Shown piece after piece: positions 10,220-31,903 of a stretch of 64,000 nucleotides of DNA. Source of the DNA: Patescibacteria group bacterium. GTDB taxonomy: Bacteria; Patescibacteriota; Patescibacteriia; Patescibacteriales; UBA12465. Both the position numbers and the translations under genes were made by a program. The notes under the pieces are model-generated. The model did not search any database and had not been told where the DNA came from. It saw only the letters and a program-made list of their open reading frames with translations. Numbering within the stretch: the stretch's first letter is position 1; each line of letters starts with the position of its first letter. The DNA lies in contig JBMOHE010000002.1 of the NCBI GenBank assembly GCA_049318005.1, positions 77,824 through 141,823 on the forward strand, read 5' to 3'.

Positions 10220-10975
10220 TTACGCTTTGATCTCTTCTACCTTTTCTTCTTCTTTTGCCTCAGTTACCTCAGGAGCAGCCTCAACAGCTTCTATTGGTTC
10301 AGTTACTTCAACAACTTCGGGAGTAACTTCCTTGGCTTCATTTTTTAAATTTAATTTAATATCACCACGACCAGCAATCATAACTAAGCCATTAATAGAT
10401 CCTGGAACAGAACCCTTAACGTAAATTATATTCTTTTCATTATCAACTGAAACAACTTCTAAGTTAGTAGTAGTAACTCTATCTCCACCCATACGACCGC
10501 CCATTCTTGTACCTTTAAAAACATGAGCTGGACCTTTTGGACCAATAGAACCACCCATTCTTTCTTGATCTTTATTACCATGAGTATGTTTATGACCAGA
10601 AAAATGATGACGTTTAACAACACCTTGAAAACCTTTTCCTTTTGAAGTTCCAGTTACGTTAATCGGATCGCCAGCTGCAAAAGTTTCAACGCTAACAACA
10701 TCTCCTACTTTAAAAGTATCAGGATTAGCAACTCTAAACTCTCTTAAGTGAGCAGGCTTAACATCTAAATTTTTAAGGTGACCAAGTTGAGGTTTTTTAA
10801 TATTTTTAGCTTTTCTATCGCCAAAGGCTAATTGAACAGCTTCGTAACCATCTTTAGTTTTAGTTTTGACCTGAGTTATAACACAAGGACCAGCTAAAAC
10901 CGCAGTTACAGCTACAACTTTATCATCACTCCAAACTTGGGTCATGCTTAATTTTTTTCCTAAAATAAATTTCAT
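10220..10975 (-). CDS. rplC: 50S ribosomal protein L3 with acidic C-terminal tail
   Basis: The track starts at 10987. The ATG at 10975 gives the canonical MKFILGKKLSMTQVW and has the local ATATG context. The C-terminal about 45 aa are E/V/A-rich (PEVVEVTEPIEAVEAAPEVTEAKEEEKVEEIKA). Confidence 0.92.
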   Translation of the reverse strand: MKFILGKKLSMTQVWSDDKVVAVTAVLAGPCVITQVKTKTKDGYEAVQLAFGDRKAKNIKKPQLGHLKNLDVKPAHLREFRVANPDTFKVGDVVSVETFAAGDPINVTGTSKGKGFQGVVKRHHFSGHKHTHGNKDQERMGGSIGPKGPAHVFKGTRMGGRMGGDRVTTTNLEVVSVDNEKNIIYVKGSVPGSINGLVMIAGRGDIKLNLKNEAKEVTPEVVEVTEPIEAVEAAPEVTEAKEEEKVEEIKA

Positions 10976-12873: not shown

Positions 12874-13254
12874 TTACTCAATTTCCTGTGCTTTATTCTT
12901 TACATTTGACGGAATTGACCAGGCCTTTTTAGGTCTATCTTCTTCCGCTAAAGATGGCGCAATATTGCCATTTTTCCACACAGATATTTCGCGATTTATT
13001 TTATCAGTTAAATCTTCTTCTGTCAAATTTTCAGTTTCATTGCTTAAATCTTTAATTACGGGACTTTTTTCCTTATTTACTGACAAATCTGCAACCTGGC
13101 TATTAATAGGGGCGTTATCACCAACCATATTCTCATAGCGATCAAAATCCATCACAACATAAGAGCTAGTCGGCTCATTAGAATCAAAAATAACAACTCT
13201 ATCGCCAGTTTTCTTTATTAAATTTAAAATCTTTTTTAATTGTTCTGGAAACAT
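12874..13254 (-). CDS. hypothetical protein inserted in str operon (N-terminal Phd/YefM-like pattern, acidic tail)
   Basis: 126-aa ORF starting 10 nt after the fusA stop. N-terminus: MFPEQLKKILNLIKKTGDRVVIFDSNEPTSSYVVMDFDRYENMV. The remainder is low-complexity and acidic. Confidence 0.6.
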   Translation of the reverse strand: MFPEQLKKILNLIKKTGDRVVIFDSNEPTSSYVVMDFDRYENMVGDNAPINSQVADLSVNKEKSPVIKDLSNETENLTEEDLTDKINREISVWKNGNIAPSLAEEDRPKKAWSIPSNVKNKAQEIE

Positions 13255-16469: not shown

Positions 16470-16498
16470 TTGACAAAGGTGTGCCAATATGTTACATT
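16470..16498 (+). promoter_or_regulatory. putative promoter of the 16559 gene
   Basis: TTGACA, 17 nt (..caaTATGt), TACATT; about 60-nt A-rich leader. Confidence 0.55.
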
Positions 16499-16558: not shown

Positions 16559-17329
16559 ATGATCACCCTTAGAAAAACCGTTTCCCTATCATTGGACATT
16601 AACGATCTTAATGAAGCCGTGATTCTCTTTTTGAAAGACAAAGGTTTTGAACCTTTTGATAAAGTTACTATTGAAGATCTGCAAAAAATTATTGATGGTG
16701 GCCAACTTGTGTTAAACGCTCATGAAGTAAATGACCAGGCTGGTGAGAAACACTTTGAAGAATATGACCCAGAGAAAATCAATATTATTTTCCCGGATGA
16801 ATTTATTGCCAGGCTCGGCGGATACTCCCAAGGCTTAGAAATGTTTCTTTGTAATGTCTCCGACGAAGGAGTACAGAAGATGTTGAACAAAACCTACAGA
16901 CTGCAATCAACAATTGAGCGACGTGTTTTGGCTTTCTATCATAAATTATATGATGATACAAACAAAGAATTTATTAACGTTGCGTTTAATGAAAGTGATC
17001 CCGATCTTCGTTACAACTCTGCTATTCACATATTCACTGAAGAGCTGCACGCAAATTTCCGAGGTGTTTTATTTGAAAACAAATTAGAAGCCAAGCTTAG
17101 TCTTTCAAGGGCCGAACTTCTTGAGAAAAACATTATTGATTTATACATTTCTAATCGTTCGACTACATCTCTACTTCGTGTCGATATTACAAGCGTTGAA
17201 AAAATGTTAAATTGGTACGAAAACAAAGATCCAAAAAATATAAGAAATCTTGGACCTAAATCTTTCAAGGAAATTCAGGACTTTATAAAGTTATACAAAC
17301 TACATTCTGAGTTTTCGGTTATATCATAA
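16559..17329 (+). CDS. hypothetical protein with C-terminal RNA polymerase alpha-CTD-like helix-hairpin-helix module
   Basis: 256 aa. Residues 191-245, NIIDLYISNRSTTSLLRVDITSVEKMLNWYENKDPKNIRNLGPKSFKEIQDFIKL, parallel the alpha-CTD pattern DLxLSVRSxNCL...I..[IV]..L....L....NLGKKSL.EI. Confidence 0.7.
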   Translation: MITLRKTVSLSLDINDLNEAVILFLKDKGFEPFDKVTIEDLQKIIDGGQLVLNAHEVNDQAGEKHFEEYDPEKINIIFPDEFIARLGGYSQGLEMFLCNVSDEGVQKMLNKTYRLQSTIERRVLAFYHKLYDDTNKEFINVAFNESDPDLRYNSAIHIFTEELHANFRGVLFENKLEAKLSLSRAELLEKNIIDLYISNRSTTSLLRVDITSVEKMLNWYENKDPKNIRNLGPKSFKEIQDFIKLYKLHSEFSVIS

Positions 17330-17355: not shown

Positions 17356-17385
17356 AAGCGCATACTAACCATATGCGCTTTTTAA
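17356..17385 (+). terminator. rho-independent terminator
   Basis: AAGCGCATA-ctaacca-TATGCGCTT followed by a T-run. Confidence 0.8.
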
Positions 17386-17479: not shown

Positions 17480-18151
17480 ATGAACAGAAAAAGTTTTTTT
17501 TCAGCTTCGCTAATTTTATTAGCTCTATTTATTGCCCTTCCCTTTTCTGCTTTCAGTCAAAACATAAAAGAAGCAAAAGTTTCTGACGGGATCTATATGG
17601 GGAAATATTATAATACTCCCATGTTTTATGAAGTTACTAAAAATGAAATTAAACCACTTGGTCTTTGTTTTCCGTATTTCGGAATAAAAATTGAAGATGA
17701 GACTGCTTTCTATCTACTTCTTGATCAACGATATTTTAAAAAATTTCTTTATTGCGAAAAGCTGGCGATAGAAAAAAGTGATTACGGAAAAGGCGAGATT
17801 AATACCAACAAAGAATTCATTGGCTTTCACTCTGGGCCACTGCTTGGCGACCAGCAATATCAAGATGGTATATTATTTGCTATCAAAGATACTCTCGATG
17901 GAAAAATGTTAATTACAATTTTGGACTTAACAAATTATAATTTCTATCAAACCATCGGAGTCGTAACCCCGGATAAAAGTCAGGGACTACACAGGAAACT
18001 GAACTTTGTTGTTAATGGAGAAATTAATAATTTCAAAGATGAAAATTGGGAAATCACCCTTAATCCAATTACCAACTATGTTTGGCGAGGAATATTTAAT
18101 GTCTACATAAATGGCGGATTACGCTTTGAAATCGAAGTAATTGATAATTAA
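17480..18151 (+). CDS. secreted hypothetical protein
   Basis: 223 aa; signal peptide [28 protein letters not shown]; no family recognised. Confidence 0.7.
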   Translation: MNRKSFFSASLILLALFIALPFSAFSQNIKEAKVSDGIYMGKYYNTPMFYEVTKNEIKPLGLCFPYFGIKIEDETAFYLLLDQRYFKKFLYCEKLAIEKSDYGKGEINTNKEFIGFHSGPLLGDQQYQDGILFAIKDTLDGKMLITILDLTNYNFYQTIGVVTPDKSQGLHRKLNFVVNGEINNFKDENWEITLNPITNYVWRGIFNVYINGGLRFEIEVIDN

Positions 18152-18163
18152 TAAGAACAATTC

Positions 18164-18192
18164 GGCCCTAGTTTAAAACTAAGGCCTTTTTT
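18164..18192 (+). terminator. rho-independent terminator
   Basis: GGCCCTAGTT-ttaa-AACTAAGGCC (one mismatch) followed by a T-run. Confidence 0.75.
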
Positions 18193-18210
18193 ATTACTTT
18201 TTTATAAGTA

Positions 18211-18239
18211 TTGACATATTAAAATAAATATGTTATACT
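18211..18239 (+). promoter_or_regulatory. strong promoter with -16 TRTG motif
   Basis: TTGACA, tattaaaATAAATATGt (17 nt), TATACT. Confidence 0.65.
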
Positions 18240-18286
18240 TATCTTAATTATTTGCGAACATTAACAACCCAAAAACATATAAGATA

Positions 18287-18424
18287 ATGGCTAAGTTCAA
18301 TGAAATAGCACTCGATCTCGTTTATTTACCTTTCACCATTTTGACGAGCGTATTCTTTGGAGTTAGATATATAATTAAAGAAATTAAATATATCTATAAA
18401 CATAAAAAATTAATAACAAAATAA
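18287..18424 (+). CDS. unannotated 45-aa single-TM micro-protein
   Basis: ATG at 18287, TAA at 18422-18424: MAKFNEIALDLVYLPFTILTSVFFGVRYIIKEIKYIYKHKKLITK. Below the ORF-track cutoff. Lies between the promoter and the lipoprotein gene. Confidence 0.45.
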   Translation: MAKFNEIALDLVYLPFTILTSVFFGVRYIIKEIKYIYKHKKLITK

Positions 18425-18459
18425 ATTATTATCCACTCACCAAAAAAAACAAGTTCATC

Positions 18460-19362
18460 ATGAAAAAAGTATTTTATTTTTTTGCGTTGCTTATTATGGC
18501 AACTTTCCTTTCTTGCGAATCGGCTATAAATGAGCCAACAATAACAAAAGAAAACATTAAAATTTTTATGTCCTACGCAACGCCTCAACAAAACGGGAGA
18601 ATGAATGCTAAAGGATCAAACAGCGAAACAACAAGCCGGCCAATAACCCCGGGCGACACAGTTGATGTCAGTGATCTGAAAAAAGTAAACATTATCTTGT
18701 CATCTGAAAATGAACAAGGATTTGGGCAAGAAGGTTTTTGGTTAATTATACCAATGGACCTTGAAATAAAAGCAAAAGATGCTTATATAGCAAATCCTCC
18801 TGTTTATGCTAGCGAAGGAGAATTAATCGCCGTGAAATTATCAATGCTTGGTTTATACAAAGCCACGTTTAGACAAAAAAATGGATTAGCGGAAATTAGT
18901 TTTTATATCAGACATACTGGCTTGCCAGGGGATATTGGTGACGGATTTGATAATGACTACATTTTCCGATTAGAAAAGAATGTCTTTCAAACTGCCGAAA
19001 CTGTTGGCAACTATCTGAAAAAAGGTTATTCCCTGTATATAAAATCTCCCGAAGGAGAATTTGATTTTATAAATGACGGAAAAGGACCTGGCGATCTTCA
19101 TGCTTTAGTATTTGGAGAAAACCAAACCTTTGTTACATCGAATGGCTTCCACGTAAGCGCAGCAAACTTTAAACTGGAAAGATGTAAATATTCAAAAGAT
19201 TATTTAAAACTTACTTTCTTTTCGGAAGATATCAGGCCAACAAAAGGTATATATGAAATAGTTTATTATGCCGGTAATTACGGAGATAACTGGTTTTCAT
19301 TTGATTCAGTCAACAGATCAAATTGGAATGTTAGCTACACAATAGCATTCAAAACATTCTAA
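18460..19362 (+). CDS. putative lipoprotein, unknown function
   Basis: 300 aa; MKKVFYFFALLIMATFLSC with a lipobox-like FLSC. Confidence 0.7.
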   Translation: MKKVFYFFALLIMATFLSCESAINEPTITKENIKIFMSYATPQQNGRMNAKGSNSETTSRPITPGDTVDVSDLKKVNIILSSENEQGFGQEGFWLIIPMDLEIKAKDAYIANPPVYASEGELIAVKLSMLGLYKATFRQKNGLAEISFYIRHTGLPGDIGDGFDNDYIFRLEKNVFQTAETVGNYLKKGYSLYIKSPEGEFDFINDGKGPGDLHALVFGENQTFVTSNGFHVSAANFKLERCKYSKDYLKLTFFSEDIRPTKGIYEIVYYAGNYGDNWFSFDSVNRSNWNVSYTIAFKTF

Positions 19363-19381
19363 AAATCTAAATTCACAATTC

Positions 19382-19419
19382 AAAAAGCCCCTGCTTAAAA
19401 ACTGGGGCCTTTTTATTTT
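19382..19419. terminator. bidirectional terminator between convergent genes
   Basis: AAAAA-GCCCC-tgcttaaaaact-GGGGC-CTTTTTATTTT. Confidence 0.7.
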
Positions 19420-19423
19420 CTAA

Positions 19424-22411
19424 CTATTTACCTTCTTTAATTTTATTTAAATCTGCGGTAGTAATTCCAAGAGATAAATATTTCATTATTTTATAAGCCG
19501 CTTCTCCGTCAGCCAAATAATATCTCTTTCCGTTATAAACATACCAAGCCTCACCGTTTCCTTGAACTTGAATTAATATCTTTCCTTCTAAACCTTTAGA
19601 GTAGGCGCTGCTGGTATTAGTTTTTCCTGCCCCTCTTGGATTGTAGCCAGTTTTAACCTCTTGGCTATCATGATACCCATCACCGTCTGTATCAGCCTTA
19701 TTCTTGTCCGTACCTAGTGATATTTCAGTTTTATCATCAAGTCCGTCGTTATCACTATCTACTCCCAAAACTCTATCTTCAATTCCGACTGGAATTTTAT
19801 TCAAATTTTCGTTAGTGATACCAAGTCCAAACTTTTTTAAGGCTCCATAGGCCGCATTACCATCGGCTAAATAATATCTATTCAAACTCTTTGAATCAAC
19901 ATACCAAGCCTTTCCGCCATCTTCAACTTGAAGCAAGATTTTTCCACTAAGTTTTTTAGTTAATTTAAGATCTTCTTTTGCTCCGGCAGGAGAATTCTTG
20001 GCTGCAGCCGCGTTGACCGCAGGCGCATTAGTATCGTTCTTACTTGAGATAGTTTGAGCAAGAGATGGGTTTCCGACACCCCAATAGAAACCTTTTAGCA
20101 TATTATTAAATTCCCCGACAGCCGCTGCATAATCTTTGTCATTTAAACCCAGGGTGTTTAGGCTAAAAATATAAAGATTATCATTTTTTCTAATTGTGTA
20201 AGAAATTTCGCGAACCACCACTTCGCCTGTGCTAATTTTTTGGAAAGAAGATTCAACTAAAATAACTTTATCTAGCTGACTATTAATTTTATTGTTAATA
20301 CTAGATTTTACAACATTAATCTTCGTGTTAGCACTATCACTTAGTTTATTGAGGCTAGTAACGGCAGTTTTTAATTGACTAAGAATAAGCTCATCGCTTA
20401 AATTTTTTATATCTTCCGTTTCTTTATTTACCTTAACTGAAACTTTTGTATTATTGCTTTTATTGTAAACAGTTAGGGGTTCGTTGCCGATATACTTTGG
20501 CATAATTACCCAGTTGCCAGAAGTATTAAGTGAGAAGCCGTAAGTAGGATTTTTATAACTATATTGAGAGTTAGGGACTGCGATTGAATGACCAAGAGTA
20601 ATGGATTTTATAGCCGCATCAACCAAAGATTTATCTTGGCTATTTTCTCCATAATCATATCCAACACTAATTAAATATGGTCCGTTACTTAGAAAATAGA
20701 AATTAATACTTTTGCCCTGCAAAGATGCTTTAACATTCCTTACTGGCACACCATTAATAGTTTCGATGCTATTACTTATAATATCTACTCCGCTTACTAT
20801 ACCCAAATCATAAAGCTGGCTTAAGGCATAATATAAAGACGCCTGACCAACTGCATATGGATATTTTGTTAAACCAATAGAAATTGAACCGCCGGCATCA
20901 TTAGCTCTTTCAGTAATATATAAAGATTCTTCTGAATCATATATAAATTCCCATGAACTAGGCCTCGTAATTGAAAGATTAACTTTATCCATTTTAAAAA
21001 TATTACTGGTGTTCGCTTGTTTTTTCTTCAATATAAAATTATTCAACGAGGACAATAGAGGATCTTCAGCGGAAATACTTCTAGTCTTATTAAAATCAAT
21101 CCATGACTTTAATGAATCAATGTTTATAATATAGCCCATGTCACTAATCAAATCAGAATATGCTCCGCTAGTAATCCCCACGAGCTCGCCTTTCATATTT
21201 ATAGCCGCTCCTCCAGAGCTGCCAAATGAAATAACCGCGTCTGTCTTCATCCAATCATGAGAATATTTATTTAATTTGCCACTAATAATTCCCTTGGTAA
21301 CCGTAATTGTGTCACCGCCAATCGCAGGAAATCCTAGGGCAACCACCTCATCATTAGTATTTGAAGAAGTAGTTGAAAAATTAATATACGGGAAAACTGT
21401 CAGACTAGATAACCCTGGGATTGACTCTATCTTAAGCAAAGCAATGTCTAATTTTTCATCTTTTGCAATTAATTTTGCCTTATAATTACAATCAGGCTCT
21501 TTATCGATAGCTGAATTTAAACAAATATTATATCCCGCAACTTCGTCAGCGCCATCGTAATTATCATCAACTGTCACAACGTGTGAATTTGTTAAAAGTA
21601 AACCATCGGGACTAATAATTACGCCTGAACCATAAGAAGTTTCCATTAACCCCTGGTCTTGATTAACGCCAATAGTCATAACTTTAGCAATCGCCCTGTA
21701 AACATCAGCTTTAGGCAAACTACTAAGACTAGCCGCGCCACTATTAGAAGAACTAATTACAGAAATAGTTGAAGAGCTATTTGAAGAATTTTGGACACTA
21801 ACTCCTGAACTAATTTCTAAAATAGGAACTCCTTCTGAGCCGGACGTAGAGTAATTAGCACAAGCGAATAATCCCTTGTGACTTGCCAGGGATGTATTTT
21901 CAACCTCTTTTCTTATTACAAAACCGTAATTAGTTGATGGATTACTTAACCATTCTTTAACAATGCTTGTTACATCAAATTCGTATTTATAAACCCCTTG
22001 ACTTACTACCTGAGCTTTAATACCAGTTGAAGAATAAGTTGGTTGAGAATTCCAAGTTACAGAATTTTCATTCCAACTACTTGTAACCTTATATAAAACA
22101 TAATTATCATCGTCGTCCCAAGAATTACTAACGCGATCCATCTTGAAAACCGCTTTATCAAACTGGGAAGCAGAGCTTAGCCCTGTTAAATTAATTTTTG
22201 CTAAATAACGAAATGAGTGACCGCCATAAGAACTCCAAGAACCAATGTCTCCGTATGTGCTACATTTTTGATATTCGCTCGCCTTGCCACTATCTATAAT
22301 ATTATCGCTACTAACTAAATAAGTATTTGTACTCGCCGAAGCATTTGAAGCTAAAAGTATGCAAGCAACAAACAGAATTAATGAGATATTAATTCCAAAG
22401 ATTTTTTTCAT
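19424..22411 (-). CDS. large secreted multidomain protein: DNRLRE-like beta-sandwich, trypsin-like (HtrA/S1C-type) serine protease, TSP3-like Ca-binding Asp repeats, two copies of a 55-aa C-terminal module
   Basis: 995 aa; signal peptide. WNENSVTWNSQP motif (aa about 113-124). Protease triad context: TNSHVV (H277), LDIALLKI (D322), GSSGGA (S399). DSDNDGLDDKTE...DTDGDGYHD. Confidence 0.8.
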   Translation of the reverse strand: MKKIFGINISLILFVACILLASNASASTNTYLVSSDNIIDSGKASEYQKCSTYGDIGSWSSYGGHSFRYLAKINLTGLSSASQFDKAVFKMDRVSNSWDDDDNYVLYKVTSSWNENSVTWNSQPTYSSTGIKAQVVSQGVYKYEFDVTSIVKEWLSNPSTNYGFVIRKEVENTSLASHKGLFACANYSTSGSEGVPILEISSGVSVQNSSNSSSTISVISSSNSGAASLSSLPKADVYRAIAKVMTIGVNQDQGLMETSYGSGVIISPDGLLLTNSHVVTVDDNYDGADEVAGYNICLNSAIDKEPDCNYKAKLIAKDEKLDIALLKIESIPGLSSLTVFPYINFSTTSSNTNDEVVALGFPAIGGDTITVTKGIISGKLNKYSHDWMKTDAVISFGSSGGAAINMKGELVGITSGAYSDLISDMGYIINIDSLKSWIDFNKTRSISAEDPLLSSLNNFILKKKQANTSNIFKMDKVNLSITRPSSWEFIYDSEESLYITERANDAGGSISIGLTKYPYAVGQASLYYALSQLYDLGIVSGVDIISNSIETINGVPVRNVKASLQGKSINFYFLSNGPYLISVGYDYGENSQDKSLVDAAIKSITLGHSIAVPNSQYSYKNPTYGFSLNTSGNWVIMPKYIGNEPLTVYNKSNNTKVSVKVNKETEDIKNLSDELILSQLKTAVTSLNKLSDSANTKINVVKSSINNKINSQLDKVILVESSFQKISTGEVVVREISYTIRKNDNLYIFSLNTLGLNDKDYAAAVGEFNNMLKGFYWGVGNPSLAQTISSKNDTNAPAVNAAAAKNSPAGAKEDLKLTKKLSGKILLQVEDGGKAWYVDSKSLNRYYLADGNAAYGALKKFGLGITNENLNKIPVGIEDRVLGVDSDNDGLDDKTEISLGTDKNKADTDGDGYHDSQEVKTGYNPRGAGKTNTSSAYSKGLEGKILIQVQGNGEAWYVYNGKRYYLADGEAAYKIMKYLSLGITTADLNKIKEGK

Positions 22412-26530: not shown

Positions 26531-27640
26531 TTATTTTTTAGAATTGCTCGTCTTTAACCAGCGTAAATATGCTTCCATGAATTTTTCTAAATCACCATCT
26601 AAAACCGCATCAACATTAGAAGTTTCGTAATCATTTCTATGATCTTTAACTAAACGATTGCCGTAAAGAAAATAAGAGCGAATCTGACGGCCCCATTCGG
26701 CCTTAGTTAACTCCCCTTTCAATTTCTTTTCCTCGGCTTCTTTTTCTTCAAGGGCTAACTGATACAATTTAGTTTTCAAAATTTTAAATGCATTTTCCTT
26801 GTTCTGATGCTGCGAACGTTCAGTCTGGCAAGAAATAGTTATGCCTGTCGGGATATGAACTAAGCGAACAGCCGAGTCGGTTGTATTAACGCTCTGTCCG
26901 CCCGGGCCCGAAGAACGAAAGACATCAATTCTAATATCCTCATCTCTGATTACAACCGCATTATCATCTTTTAATTCCGGAATTACTTCAGCGAGCGCAA
27001 AAGAAGTCTGACGTAAACCATCGGCGTTAAACGGAGAGTTTCGAAGTAGTCGATGGACGCCATTTTCACTCTTTAAATAACCATAAGCCCAAGGACCAAT
27101 TATTCGTAAAGTTGAGCTCTTGAGCCCAGCTTCATTACCATAATTTCGGTCTAAAATCTCTATTTTCCAGCCTTGACGCTCCGCAAAGCGTAAATACATT
27201 CGCTCCAGCATCTGAGTCCAATCCTGAGCGTCTACGCCGCCTGTACCGGAATGCAAAGAGATAAAGGCATTATTATTATCATGCTCGCCGGAAAACAAGG
27301 AAAAGAACTCTAAATGCGAAAATTTCTTCTCTAACTCTTCATATTTCGTTTCTAGTTCCTCGGTTAAATCTCCATGAGCCTCCCTTTGCGCTAAAGCCGC
27401 CATTTCTTCCGCGTCTCTAATTTCTGTTTCCATTTCTAACCATTCTTTAATTTCTGAATTTAATTCTTCAGCCTTCTGGCCAATTTTAACAGCCGATTCC
27501 CTGTCGTCCCAAAAATCCGGTTCTGACATCCTTAAGCGAAGTTCGTGCTCTCTAACAACTTTTCTTTCAATATCTAAAAGCGCTTTCGTTTTCAAAAAGC
27601 GTTCCCGCAGTTCTTCTAATTTTTTAATCAGATTTTCCAT
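26531..27640 (-). CDS. prfB: peptide chain release factor 2 (uninterrupted frame)
   Basis: 369 aa; SPF tripeptide (NSPFNADG) and GGQ (SGPGGQSVN). No internal stop or +1 shift site is needed. Confidence 0.93.
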   Translation of the reverse strand: MENLIKKLEELRERFLKTKALLDIERKVVREHELRLRMSEPDFWDDRESAVKIGQKAEELNSEIKEWLEMETEIRDAEEMAALAQREAHGDLTEELETKYEELEKKFSHLEFFSLFSGEHDNNNAFISLHSGTGGVDAQDWTQMLERMYLRFAERQGWKIEILDRNYGNEAGLKSSTLRIIGPWAYGYLKSENGVHRLLRNSPFNADGLRQTSFALAEVIPELKDDNAVVIRDEDIRIDVFRSSGPGGQSVNTTDSAVRLVHIPTGITISCQTERSQHQNKENAFKILKTKLYQLALEEKEAEEKKLKGELTKAEWGRQIRSYFLYGNRLVKDHRNDYETSNVDAVLDGDLEKFMEAYLRWLKTSNSKK

Positions 27641-27735: not shown

Positions 27736-28350
27736 TTAAGTTAGTATAGCGGCGTAATCATTAGGACCAAAAAGCTGTTCTAAACAACGACAATCCCACG
27801 TCCACTTAGAACCATCCTCACAGAGACAGCGGACATAAAGATGTTCATTTGCAGAATAAATAGTTCCCCAAAAGAAAACACGTTTATTTCTCCAGTCTTT
27901 AGGAATGAGTTTTGGATTAGCCAATAAATAGTCAAGGACATTAGCGTTCAGTACGGCCTCAGAATTAATTTCATTACGTAAATCTATTCCCGAAGGAATT
28001 CCACTTTTTTGCACGCTGGACAGGTAAAGAGAAATATCCACTGAACAAAAGTCTATAACCCCATGCCATGAATGCGTTGCAAGTTTCAATATTTCTGGGA
28101 CATAAGGGGCTGCTCCACAATCGATAAAATACTTAAAATATTCTATTGAAGCAATACCCGAAACGACATCTAAATGACGAGCTGATTTACCTTCAATAAT
28201 AATACTCTGCATTACCTCAAGAGCATCTTCATAAGAAACATTTCCCTTTTCAATCCTTTTAACGATTTCATTCGTTTTTACTTGTAACTTTCCGATTTCG
28301 TCGGCGGTAAGTTTTCTTTTTTCGTCTTTAACAGAGTTTCCCGTTTTCAT
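27736..28350 (-). CDS. hypothetical protein (orphan, Cys-rich C-terminus)
   Basis: 204-aa ORF with its own promoter and terminator. C-terminus: VFFWGTIYSANEHLYVRCLCEDGSKWTWDCRCLEQLF. No family recognised. Confidence 0.65.
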   Translation of the reverse strand: MKTGNSVKDEKRKLTADEIGKLQVKTNEIVKRIEKGNVSYEDALEVMQSIIIEGKSARHLDVVSGIASIEYFKYFIDCGAAPYVPEILKLATHSWHGVIDFCSVDISLYLSSVQKSGIPSGIDLRNEINSEAVLNANVLDYLLANPKLIPKDWRNKRVFFWGTIYSANEHLYVRCLCEDGSKWTWDCRCLEQLFGPNDYAAILT

Positions 28351-29798: not shown

Positions 29799-30629
29799 TT
29801 ATTTTTTAGCTTTCTTTTTAGTTTCTTTTTTTTCTTTTTTTTCAACTACGACAGCTTCTTCCTCATCTTCAGTTTCATCGGCCACTTCAGGCATAGATAC
29901 TTCTTCAATATCAGCTTCAAGAATTTCTTCTTTTTTAGCCATTGCTCCTGGGATTAAAGCGCTATATTGATCAACCAAGATTTTTACAGCTTCATTAAAA
30001 GCATTTTCAGGAGTAATTGTGCCGTCAGTTTTTACATTTAAAATTAATTTGTCCCAATTAGTCATTTTACCAACACGAGTATTTTCAACACTGCTGGAAA
30101 CGATAACTACTGGAGAAAACATAGAATCGATTTCGATATATCCAATTTCACGATTTTCTTTTTTAGCTCCTTCTGGCATTTTATAACCACGACCTTCTTT
30201 TACAACAATTTCCATTTCTAAACTACCAGCCTCATCAGTGATGTTAGCAATAACTAACTCAGGATTTTTAATTTCAACTTGGCTGTTTTTAGCAATATCA
30301 CCCGCAGTTACAACTTTTTTACCCTTAACTTTTAACTCTAGACGAACTTCTTCGTCAGTATGTATTTTAAGACGTACTTGTTTCAAGTTTAAAATCATTT
30401 CTAAAACATCTTCTTTAACATGAGGTAAAGCCATAAATTCATGACTCGCACCTTTAATTTTAGCGCCGATAACGGCAGCTCCTGGTAAAGATGATAACAA
30501 GACTCGGCGTAAAGAGTTGCCTAAAGTCATGCCGTAACCTGGAAATAAAGGATCAACTGTAATGATTCCTTCGTTAAGGTTTTCACCTGTTTTAAAATCA
30601 ATTTTTTTAGGTAAAGCAATGTTTTGCAT
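29799..30629 (-). CDS. rpoA: DNA-directed RNA polymerase alpha subunit, N-terminal domain only
   Basis: 276 aa. The NTD (LGNSLRRVLLSSLPGAAV...VKILVDQYSALI) is followed by a 50-aa E/K low-complexity tail. No HhH CTD. Confidence 0.9.
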   Translation of the reverse strand: MQNIALPKKIDFKTGENLNEGIITVDPLFPGYGMTLGNSLRRVLLSSLPGAAVIGAKIKGASHEFMALPHVKEDVLEMILNLKQVRLKIHTDEEVRLELKVKGKKVVTAGDIAKNSQVEIKNPELVIANITDEAGSLEMEIVVKEGRGYKMPEGAKKENREIGYIEIDSMFSPVVIVSSSVENTRVGKMTNWDKLILNVKTDGTITPENAFNEAVKILVDQYSALIPGAMAKKEEILEADIEEVSMPEVADETEDEEEAVVVEKKEKKETKKKAKK

Positions 30630-30677: not shown

Positions 30678-31307
30678 TTATTTTGAGTAATACTCAATAA
30701 TCATTTGAACGTTAATGTTTTGTGGTAAATCAGTGTCTTTTGGTTCATGTAAAGCCTTAGCACTTAAATCCTTAACATCAAGATTCAACCAGCTTGGTCT
30801 TTCTGATTTCTTTAATTTTTCTCCAAGATTCTTAAAGAAACGATTTGATAGACTGCTCTTTCTAATTTTAATAACTTGACCTAATTTAACAGAAAAGGAA
30901 GGGATATCAGTTTTTCTATCGTTAACAGTAAAATGTCCATGAGCAACTAATTGACGAGCTTGAGCACGGGATGAAGCCCAGCCCAAACGATAAATAACAT
31001 TATCAAGACGCATTTCAAGTAATCTCAAGAAATTCTTACCAGCATCACCTTGTTTTGTAGAAGCCTTAGCATAAGTCAAACGGAATTGTTTTTCAAGCAA
31101 GCCGTAATATTTCTTAGCTTTTTGTTTTTCTTGTAATTGTAAACCGTAATCGCTCAAACGTTTATGACCTTTAGGGCCATGAAAACCAGGAGCGTAGTTA
31201 CGCTTAATCATCGCGCATTTAGGAGTAGTACATCTATCCCCCTTAAGGAATAACTTTTCTCCAATACGACGACATTGTTTACATTTATTATCAATATTTC
31301 TTCCCAT
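30678..31307 (-). CDS. rpsD: 30S ribosomal protein S4 (zinc-finger form)
   Basis: 209 aa; CKQCRRIGEKLFLKGDRCTTPKC; S4 domain. Confidence 0.95.
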   Translation of the reverse strand: MGRNIDNKCKQCRRIGEKLFLKGDRCTTPKCAMIKRNYAPGFHGPKGHKRLSDYGLQLQEKQKAKKYYGLLEKQFRLTYAKASTKQGDAGKNFLRLLEMRLDNVIYRLGWASSRAQARQLVAHGHFTVNDRKTDIPSFSVKLGQVIKIRKSSLSNRFFKNLGEKLKKSERPSWLNLDVKDLSAKALHEPKDTDLPQNINVQMIIEYYSK

Positions 31308-31318
31308 ATTATTTTATA

Positions 31319-31903
31319 TTAGACGCGACGTGGTTTTTTAGGACGACAGCCATTATGAGGAACCGGAGTTACATCTTTAATAGCGGACACGTCTAAACCG
31401 TTAGCATTTAAAGCGCGGATAGCCGCTTCACGGCCAGTACCTACACCAGAAACGAATACGCTAACTTCTTGCAAACCGTATTCTTCTTTGGCTTTTTGCG
31501 CAGCAATTTTTGTAATAATTTGAGCAGCGTAAGGAGTAGCTTTCTTAGCACCCTTAAAACCAGCTAAACCAGCACTTGCCCAAGAAATAACATCGCCATT
31601 AGTATCAGTTAAAGTAATCATGGTGTTGTTATATGTGGCTTGGATATAAGCGCGGCCAACCTTAACAACTCGAGCAGTTTTCTTCTTTTTCTTCTTGATT
31701 AATTTCTTTTTTGCTCTAGCCTGCTTATTTTTTTCTAATTTTTGTTTGATTTCTTCAGGCAATTCATCGTCACTAGAATCAAAAGAAAAACCTTCGCTCT
31801 CCTTTTCTTCTTTTTCTTCCTTGATTTCAGCCTTAAGCTCAGGAACTTTTTTTAATTCCTTAGTTTCTTCGCTTTTTGCCTCTTTTTTTACTTCTTCAGA
31901 CAT
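31319..31903 (-). CDS. rpsK: 30S ribosomal protein S11 with about 70-aa K/E-rich N-terminal extension
   Basis: 194 aa; core [18 protein letters not shown]...[13 protein letters not shown]. Confidence 0.93.

Follow-up and report, generated by a model that had tools for sequence, protein, structure and literature searches.

The rpoA gene described herein lies on the reverse strand of a 64-kb stretch of contig JBMOHE010000002.1 from a Patescibacteria group bacterium—referred to as the window, meaning the whole stretch of DNA that was analyzed—and encodes an α subunit of RNA polymerase (RNAP) without a C-terminal domain (CTD). The gene occupies positions 29799..30629 (−), and its product (NCBI MFZ4631874.1) is 276 amino acids (aa) long. 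Residues 1–226 (29952..30629, −) make up the N-terminal domain (α-NTD), the platform for dimerization and for the assembly of β and β′. Pfam matches span residues 27–221 of this domain, with PF01000 at residues 57–172 (E 5.1e-30) and PF01193 at residues 27–221 (E 4.4e-22), and the AlphaFold2 (AF2) model shows a β-rich fold with two long helices, mostly at predicted local distance difference test (pLDDT) values of 55–83. The α-NTD is hence complete up to about residue 226, as an earlier sequence-only reading of this DNA had held. The domain ends with the I of ...YSALI (residue 226) and is followed by a tail of 50 aa, for which the string given in that reading agrees exactly with the translation of the open reading frame (ORF). 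The tail is composed of an acidic linker at residues 227–263 (PGAMAKKEEILEADIEEVSMPEVADETEDEEEAVVVE; 29841..29951, −), delimited by charge, column entropy, and pLDDT, and a Lys-rich C-terminal motif at residues 264–276 (KKEKKETKKKAKK; 29802..29840, −), delimited by a C-terminally anchored profile of homologues.

The gene is embedded in the α operon in the order rpsM–rpsK–rpsD–rpoA–rplQ, and the same order, as labeled by Pfam, is present in the relatives at loci L010 and L011. Herein, rpsD (S4; 30678..31307, −) is located directly upstream of rpoA, and rplQ (L17; 29430..29780, −) starts 18 nt past the rpoA stop codon (29799–29801). The NTD, the place in the operon, and a TIGR02027 score of 251.6 bits (cutoff 227.8) put rpoA into the RpoA family, from which it departs in lacking the CTD. 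The TIGR02027 alignment covers profile positions 2–223 of 298, all seven PRK05182 submodels score rpoA under their cutoffs, and the NCBIfam rpoA models as a whole cover it only by their first ~220–250 of 298–344 positions. PF03118, the Pfam family of the α-CTD, gives no match in the rpoA product even at E ≤ 10, nor does any other Pfam family match the tail, which agrees with the α-CTD signature having been reported as absent from the 276 residues.

A hidden Markov model (HMM) of the α-CTD was built from the E. coli CTD as seed together with CTD-bearing homologues and was run against all six frames of the window. The only CTD found is encoded by the ORF at 16559–17329 (E 4e-9). Near rpoA, no CTD is present in any frame, and the rpoA product itself is not matched. 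The coordinates of the rpoA–rplQ junction are likewise as previously read, including the statement that no separate CTD ORF is hidden there. The same six-frame scan gives one copy of the α-NTD within the window, which is rpoA. A CTD concealed in another frame near the gene, as well as a second rpoA within the window, were therefore rejected.

The lack of the CTD extends well beyond this contig. The set of close homologues comprises the 120 best of 8000 (73–100% identical over the aligned part) and draws on NCBI, JGI, ENA, and Logan assemblies. All 120 proteins are 247–286 aa long, contain PF01000 and PF01193 only, and are matched neither by PF03118 nor by the α-CTD HMM; a comparison of rpoA lengths, as the sequence-only reading had proposed, finds the short form in all of these close homologues. 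A wider, exhaustive phmmer search was directed at 1.84 billion representatives at 50% identity. Among its 150 best matches, 136 were usable, and these divide into 89 with a CTD and 47 without, the CTD-less ones being concentrated nearest to the query. Among 80 loci obtained by scanning GTDB species genomes, 15 contain a complete rpoA without a CTD, including all ten that are closest to the query. In each of these 15 loci, rplQ starts 2–75 nt past the rpoA stop codon.

According to the names of the records, the CTD-less loci belong to Candidatus Falkowbacteria, Uhrbacteria, Magasanikbacteria, Kuenenbacteria, and Veblenbacteria and to the isolate BM507, all of which presumably fall into the GTDB class ABY1; the taxonomic spread given here follows the record names and the GTDB classification. 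The CTD is kept in the GTDB loci named Nomura-, Zambryski-, Kaiser-, and Campbellbacteria and in most of those named Saccharibacteria or Paceibacteria/Paceibacterota. It is also present in some Patescibacteria representatives at 44–47% identity (e.g., P0149 and P0160). Because other Patescibacteria keep the CTD, its absence is a secondary loss within the group and not an ancestral state.

A frameshift, a misassembly, or a truncated gene call could in principle conceal a normal CTD. However, rplQ begins 18 nt past the stop codon and no frame near rpoA encodes a CTD. Moreover, the identical rpoA protein occurs on three contigs, the same architecture recurs in 120 homologous clusters from NCBI, JGI, ENA, and Logan assemblies, and the same rpoA–rplQ junction is found in 15 GTDB species. 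An artefact of assembly or reading frame is thus extremely improbable and was rejected on the grounds of the tight junction, the clade-wide architecture, and the empty frames. What a real artefact looks like can be appreciated from a Chloroflexia metagenome-assembled genome (L029, 9962–10973), where the CTD of rpoA is found in a second, overlapping frame at 10680–10973; unlike the rpoA of the window, this split gene looks like the result of an assembly frameshift.

The tail that takes the place of the CTD was described by the sequence-only reading as pure E/K low complexity. This part of the description has to be replaced, since the homologues exhibit a conserved two-part layout of a variable acidic linker and a Lys-rich C terminus. 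In the 120 homologues, the tail past residue 226 is 50 aa long at the median; its mean net charge is −11 up to the last 15 residues, which themselves average +6.4. The C-terminal profile reads KKEKKE[KT][KV]KK[TAP]KK, and KK stands at the very end in 117 of 119 homologues. Over the same 119 sequences, the Lys columns of the motif have an entropy of 0.1–1.2 bits as opposed to a mean of 2.85 bits in the linker. The codons of the motif differ between relatives (AAA or AAG), and the motif is also kept at 40–41% GC. Because the codons differ synonymously, it is the protein sequence of the motif that is retained. In the AF2 model, pLDDT lies below 50 for residues 230–235 and 237–276, and the block means fall from 47 to 24–34; the tail is accordingly predicted to be disordered.

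In more distant CTD-less α subunits, the tail often ends in KKRGRPKK. This ending is present in P0143, P0152, P0155, P0167, and P0269, and in the loci L014 (BM507), L021 (Veblenbacteria), and L026 (Kuenenbacteria). At the measured composition (R 0.4%, G 2.7%, and P 4.6%), the occurrence of RGRP by chance in a tail of 50 residues has a probability of ~1e-6. The AT_hook family (PF02178) matches three of the KKRGRPKK α subunits with 13.1, 12.5, and 8.5 bits against a threshold of 17.4.

Taken together, these observations are best read as a genuine evolutionary loss of the α-CTD that is common to a clade of Patescibacteria, in which α consists of the NTD and a disordered tail that is first acidic and then basic. 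To this reading, we assign a probability of about 60%. Several points weigh against it. A neighbor-joining tree of the NTDs mixes CTD-less and CTD-bearing sequences and is poorly resolved; because this rough tree interleaves both types, one loss and several losses are indistinguishable. Beyond the 64-kb window, the genome may possibly encode another rpoA or a fusion protein that contains a CTD. The tails of three Uhrbacteria-type loci (L016, L017, and L020) are just 11–22 aa long and lack a basic end, and the tail in L024 is purely acidic; because these four have no basic end, a basic anchor is not indispensable. The motif of the window itself (KKEKKETKKKAKK) does not contain the GRP core and is hence not an AT-hook. 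Finally, charged extensions may be a habit of the lineage. S11 from the same operon (rpsK; 31319–31903, −; 194 aa) has an E/K-rich N-terminal extension of ~70 residues that is the most E/D/K-rich stretch of the window, with 70% E/D/K over 30 residues. S11 also has 194 aa in the relative L011, and it has 159 aa in L010.

The α-CTD is the reader of UP elements and the dock of class I activators and contacts region 4 of sigma as well as elongation factors; in E. coli, the activators contacted include CAP. From truncations of the E. coli subunit, an α reduced to its NTD should still dimerize, assemble β and β′, and support basal transcription directed by sigma, but it is unable to read UP elements or to serve class I activators through the CTD. 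The truncated α of the window would thus offer neither a sequence-reading contact with UP elements nor an α-CTD surface for activators of the class I type. For the tail, it is conceivable that the conserved basic end holds on to A/T-rich DNA upstream as a minimal anchor, either electrostatically or in the minor groove; in the RGRP lineages, it would bind as an AT-hook. The acidic linker would be a spacer or tether that also limits nonspecific sticking. Judged from the sequence, binding of upstream DNA by the basic terminus, with the linker as spacer, is put forward tentatively, at somewhat less than even odds. Because the tail has a conserved Lys-rich end that is AT-hook–like in sister lineages, the contact of α with upstream DNA may be reduced rather than abolished.

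Two other explanations of the tail have to be considered. The acidic disordered stretch might act in the manner of the Firmicutes δ subunit (RpoE), mimicking nucleic acid and thereby aiding the release or rejection of DNA other than promoters and of RNA, and the Lys patch would tune this activity by intramolecular contacts; a lysine tract is presumably present in δ, too. In B. subtilis, the NTD of δ is folded, and its acidic C-terminal region, with a net charge of −47, is disordered (PMC7749165). The α tail is likewise predicted to be disordered and carries a net charge of about −11 ahead of its Lys-rich end, and some relatives (L024, P0168, and P0173) have purely acidic tails. Electrostatic interactions within the disordered region of δ are reportedly of functional importance, to go by the title of reference 23 in the δ paper. 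However, the part of the α tail that is conserved is the basic end and not the acidic stretch, which is itself far shorter and less charged than that of δ. In addition, the Uhrbacteria-type α subunits are nearly tailless, and there is no sequence similarity to δ, Pfam being empty in the tail. A δ-like role is for these reasons rather unlikely. The tail could also be functionless, that is, a decayed interdomain linker whose richness in E and K stems from the A-rich codon bias of a genome with 34% GC. The GC content itself, the charged extension of S11, the freely varying linker sequence, and the nearly tailless relatives are all in line with such decay. It is, however, at odds with the persistence of the end motif in 117 of 119 homologues, some of them relatives with 40–41% GC, with synonymous codon changes, and with independent 50%-identity clusters that end in KKRGRPKK in spite of the very low chance of RGRP. 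Decay without function is very unlikely and ranks below the δ-like role.

The CTD encoded elsewhere in the window belongs to a stand-alone protein of 256 aa (16559..17329, +; NCBI MFZ4631860.1), the gene of which is divergent from rpsL. Pfam places its predicted helix–hairpin–helix domain at residues 185–242 (17111..17284, +), with a PF03118 score of 33.7 bits (E 3.1e-8; cutoff 23.8). A profile of the family matches among PDB sequences only the CTDs of RNAP α subunits (best E 3e-8). In the AF2 model, residues 200–240 have pLDDT values of 77–85, and Foldseek aligns the domain with 1z3e_B (TMt 0.62, root-mean-square deviation 2.5) and 9dvt_A (TMt 0.72), the deviations being 2.3–2.5 and the E-values, at >0.1, not significant. 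In E. coli, the residues R265, N268, G296, K298, and S299 of the "265 determinant" contact DNA, and E261 contacts region 4 of sigma. The 256-aa protein keeps the equivalents of R265, G296, K298, S299, and E302, whereas E261 is lost and N268 is replaced by T. Within the family, R265 is present in 5/6 members, G296 and K298 in 6/6 each, and S or T at position 299 in 6/6.

The remainder of the protein is of a different nature. The N-terminal module at residues 1–52 (16559..16714, +) is the best-conserved part of the family, with 65–73% identity to distant members as opposed to ~35% in the middle region. No Pfam family matches the N-terminal 180 residues, and their fold has no credible match, the AF2 model being poor in this region (pLDDT 31–75). 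A profile comparison of the N-terminal part with the α-NTD is likewise negative (hhalign probability 0.2), and descent of the protein from a duplicated, degenerate rpoA was rejected since its N-terminal part is unrelated to the α-NTD. As to an origin from phages or defense systems, no match was found in PHROGs, PADLOC, tblastn against phage records, or IMG/VR. The protein is unchanged in three independent read-set assemblies. Upstream of the gene lies a promoter-like site (16470..16498, +) with TTGACA, a spacing of 17 nt, TACATT, and the TG of an extended −10 element, which corresponds to 10/12 consensus matches and is a pattern match only. Just past the stop codon, a terminator-like hairpin is followed by a T-run (17356..17380, +). 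The hairpin suggests that the gene is a monocistronic unit.

The sequence-only reading had named this ORF as a possible replacement of the missing domain in trans. Its identity as an α-CTD protein is borne out by PF03118 above the Pfam threshold, but a general replacement is not supported. Sequence and profile searches of 5.8 billion proteins gave six clusters of the family at 90% identity, compared with >120 for the CTD-less rpoA. Scans of JGI metagenome contigs gave no confirmed relative of the 256-aa protein among the matches listed; as these scans also missed L004 and L005, the contigs of P0124, they are no evidence of absence. The position of the gene, divergent from rpsL, is kept in L004 and L006, and CTD-less rpoA and the stand-alone CTD protein occur together in the window and in L006. 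In L011, rpoA is 75% identical and CTD-less, yet the M50 peptidase gene is followed after 134 nt by rpsL, with no gene for the CTD protein. The complete Falkowbacteria genome CP066698 contains no stand-alone CTD gene within 10 kb of rpoA, and the other 15 CTD-less rpoA genes likewise have none within that distance.

Between the window and L006, identity amounts to 99% for S12, 100% for S7, 93% for EF-G, 90% for rpoA, and 73.5% for the adjacent 223-aa ORF, and it reaches the minimum of the block, 40%, in the CTD protein. At this one locus (16559–17329 in the window, 10001–10801 in L006, and 5291–6097 in L004), two types of the family are seen. Type A, to which P0301 and the protein of the window belong, has a canonical CTD, and type B, comprising P0123–P0126, has an insertion of ~7 residues between the CTD helices and is 40% identical to type A, the flanking genes being 70–100% identical. 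Such a pattern points to allelic replacement or diversifying selection at the locus. The gene borders a variable island (17480..22411, no strand assigned) that extends to the M50 peptidase gene and contains two ORFs and a trypsin-like protease of 995 aa identified by Pfam. The two ORFs (223 aa and 300 aa) have hydrophobic, signal-peptide–like N termini and belong to no Pfam family, and the 995-aa protein contains Trypsin_2, a CBM96 module, and a bacterial TSP3 repeat. Of these three, L006 has only the 223-aa ORF and L011 none.

It could be argued that α is split in these bacteria, with the 256-aa protein docking onto RNAP via its N-terminal module and supplying the reading of UP elements and the contacts with activators in trans. 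The PF03118 domain above threshold, the kept equivalents of R265, G296, K298, S299, and E302, and the presence of a CTD-less rpoA alongside the protein, both in the window and in L006, are consistent with such an arrangement. So are the strong conservation of the N-terminal 52 residues, as expected of a docking module, and the promoter-like and terminator-like signals that bracket its gene beside the str ribosomal operon. Against it stand the six clusters of the family compared with >120 of closely related CTD-less rpoA, the empty locus in L011 despite a CTD-less rpoA, and the 40% identity between genomes whose rpoA is 90% identical. Furthermore, the sigma-contacting E261 is not kept, the N-terminal part lacks similarity to the α-NTD, and the other 15 CTD-less rpoA genes have no stand-alone CTD within 10 kb. 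A split α is hence quite unlikely, somewhat less likely than the δ-like role of the tail. Because the family comprises six clusters, and because the protein is 40% identical to its positional counterpart in L006 and absent from the L011 locus, it is probably an accessory factor and not a general replacement in trans. We infer that its gene, which borders the variable island, is accessory, changes fast, and is specific to one sub-lineage, and that it is not the missing half of α. As far as its sequence tells, the protein is most likely a regulator that binds A/T-rich DNA or a factor associated with RNAP that is specific to the sub-lineage.

Returning to the loss of the CTD as the preferred reading, a broader scheme can be sketched for the ABY1-type clade. 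Herein, α would be an assembly platform with a convergent poly-Lys or AT-hook minor-groove anchor, and one sub-lineage would have added a free α-CTD protein as a detachable and rapidly changing regulatory domain that plugs into the polymerase or promoter DNA. Such a scheme is speculative and, on balance, unlikely, though less so than the δ-like role.

Some further features of the window may be mentioned. Within positions 1–32750, the α operon (infA...rpsM–rpsK–rpsD–rpoA–rplQ, then rplM–rpsI) is detached from the spc operon. It precedes prfB, comEC, an HD-domain gene, rpmB, and the M50 peptidase gene, behind which the str, S10, and spc operons follow in the same orientation. The window has this unusual order of ribosomal operons in common with L006 and L011. 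Directly upstream of infA lies alaS. Between rpsI and prfB, an ORF of 204 aa (27736–28350, −) has no match in Pfam, PHROGs, or PADLOC. At its position, L006 has an ORF of 248 aa that aligns over 69 residues only, with 64% identity. Besides the gene of the CTD protein, this is another one that changes fast while the rest of the block is conserved. The putative prfB (26531–27640, −) is a single uninterrupted ORF of 369 aa and could encode RF1 or RF2. Its positional counterparts in L006, L010, and L011 contain PCRF and RF-1 domains, and it shows no sign of the programmed +1 frameshift that is found in prfB of many bacteria. In the str operon, an ORF of 126 aa (12874–13254, −) is located between fusA and tuf. 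Its counterparts measure 125 aa in L006 (75% identical) and 131 aa in L004, two ORFs are found there in L011, and its sole match is a weak, sub-threshold one to the PhdYeFM antitoxin family (E 0.0017).

Full-text searches of a paper library found no paper linking Patescibacteria or the Candidate Phyla Radiation (CPR) to a loss of the α-CTD. The one paper that contains both the terms CPR and rpoA analyzes Nanosynbacter lyticus (PMC12641261). The CTD-less proteins have been deposited simply as "DNA-directed RNA polymerase subunit alpha." The α-CTD is regarded as a universal part of bacterial RNAP. A natural clade without it would mean that the domain is dispensable in free-living, or at least episymbiotic, cells, and would provide a natural test of which α-CTD functions are essential. 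It also bears on the control of transcription in ultra-small bacteria with few regulators and offers, in the basic or AT-hook tail, a possible minimal substitute for the domain.

Compared with canonical RpoA (TIGR02027; 329 aa in E. coli), the α subunit of the window shares the PF01193 domain interrupted by PF01000 and the location of the gene between rpsD and rplQ. It differs in that the flexible linker and the helix–hairpin–helix CTD of ~85 residues (PF03118) are missing and a disordered tail of 50 residues is present instead. Archaeal Rpo3 (subunit D) and eukaryotic Rpb3/AC40 are homologues of the α-NTD and likewise serve as assembly platforms without an appendage resembling the α-CTD. The sequence described here is nevertheless clearly bacterial, as the archaeal subunit D model NF001988 gives it 29.3 bits against a cutoff of 153.

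The AT-hook (PF02178, with the RGRP core of the HMGA type), like the α-CTD, binds the A/T-rich minor groove. The KKRGRPKK of the sister lineages corresponds to the canonical core with basic flanks, although these tails score below the Pfam threshold and the window tail KKEKKETKKKAKK has no GRP. The δ subunit resembles the tail in having a disordered, acidic C-terminal region attached to RNAP, a likeness by charge pattern only. It is, however, a subunit in its own right that has a folded NTD and a longer acidic region, and rpoA contains no δ NTD (Pfam, E ≤ 10). The use of the α-CTD fold outside rpoA is also seen in stand-alone proteins of 438–470 aa (P0127–P0142) that combine tetratricopeptide repeats (TPRs) with an α-CTD. 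In contrast to the 256-aa protein, which they match within the CTD only, their N-terminal part is a TPR region unrelated to it. These proteins derive from other metagenomes, their CTDs are matched by the α-CTD HMM with E-values down to 1e-22, and some are labeled by JGI as "DNA-directed RNA polymerase subunit alpha."

The closest parallel to the architecture itself is given by the engineered truncations of E. coli α to residues 1–235 or 1–256, by which Igarashi and Ishihama and Ross and Gourse are said to have defined the roles of the CTD. As in the α subunit of the window, the cut lies just past the last helix of the NTD, and by analogy the enzyme described here should assemble and carry out basal transcription directed by sigma. 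The truncations, however, are laboratory constructs that are unable to replace the wild-type subunit in vivo, whereas the α subunit of the window is natural, is apparently the sole α of its clade, and carries a conserved basic end.

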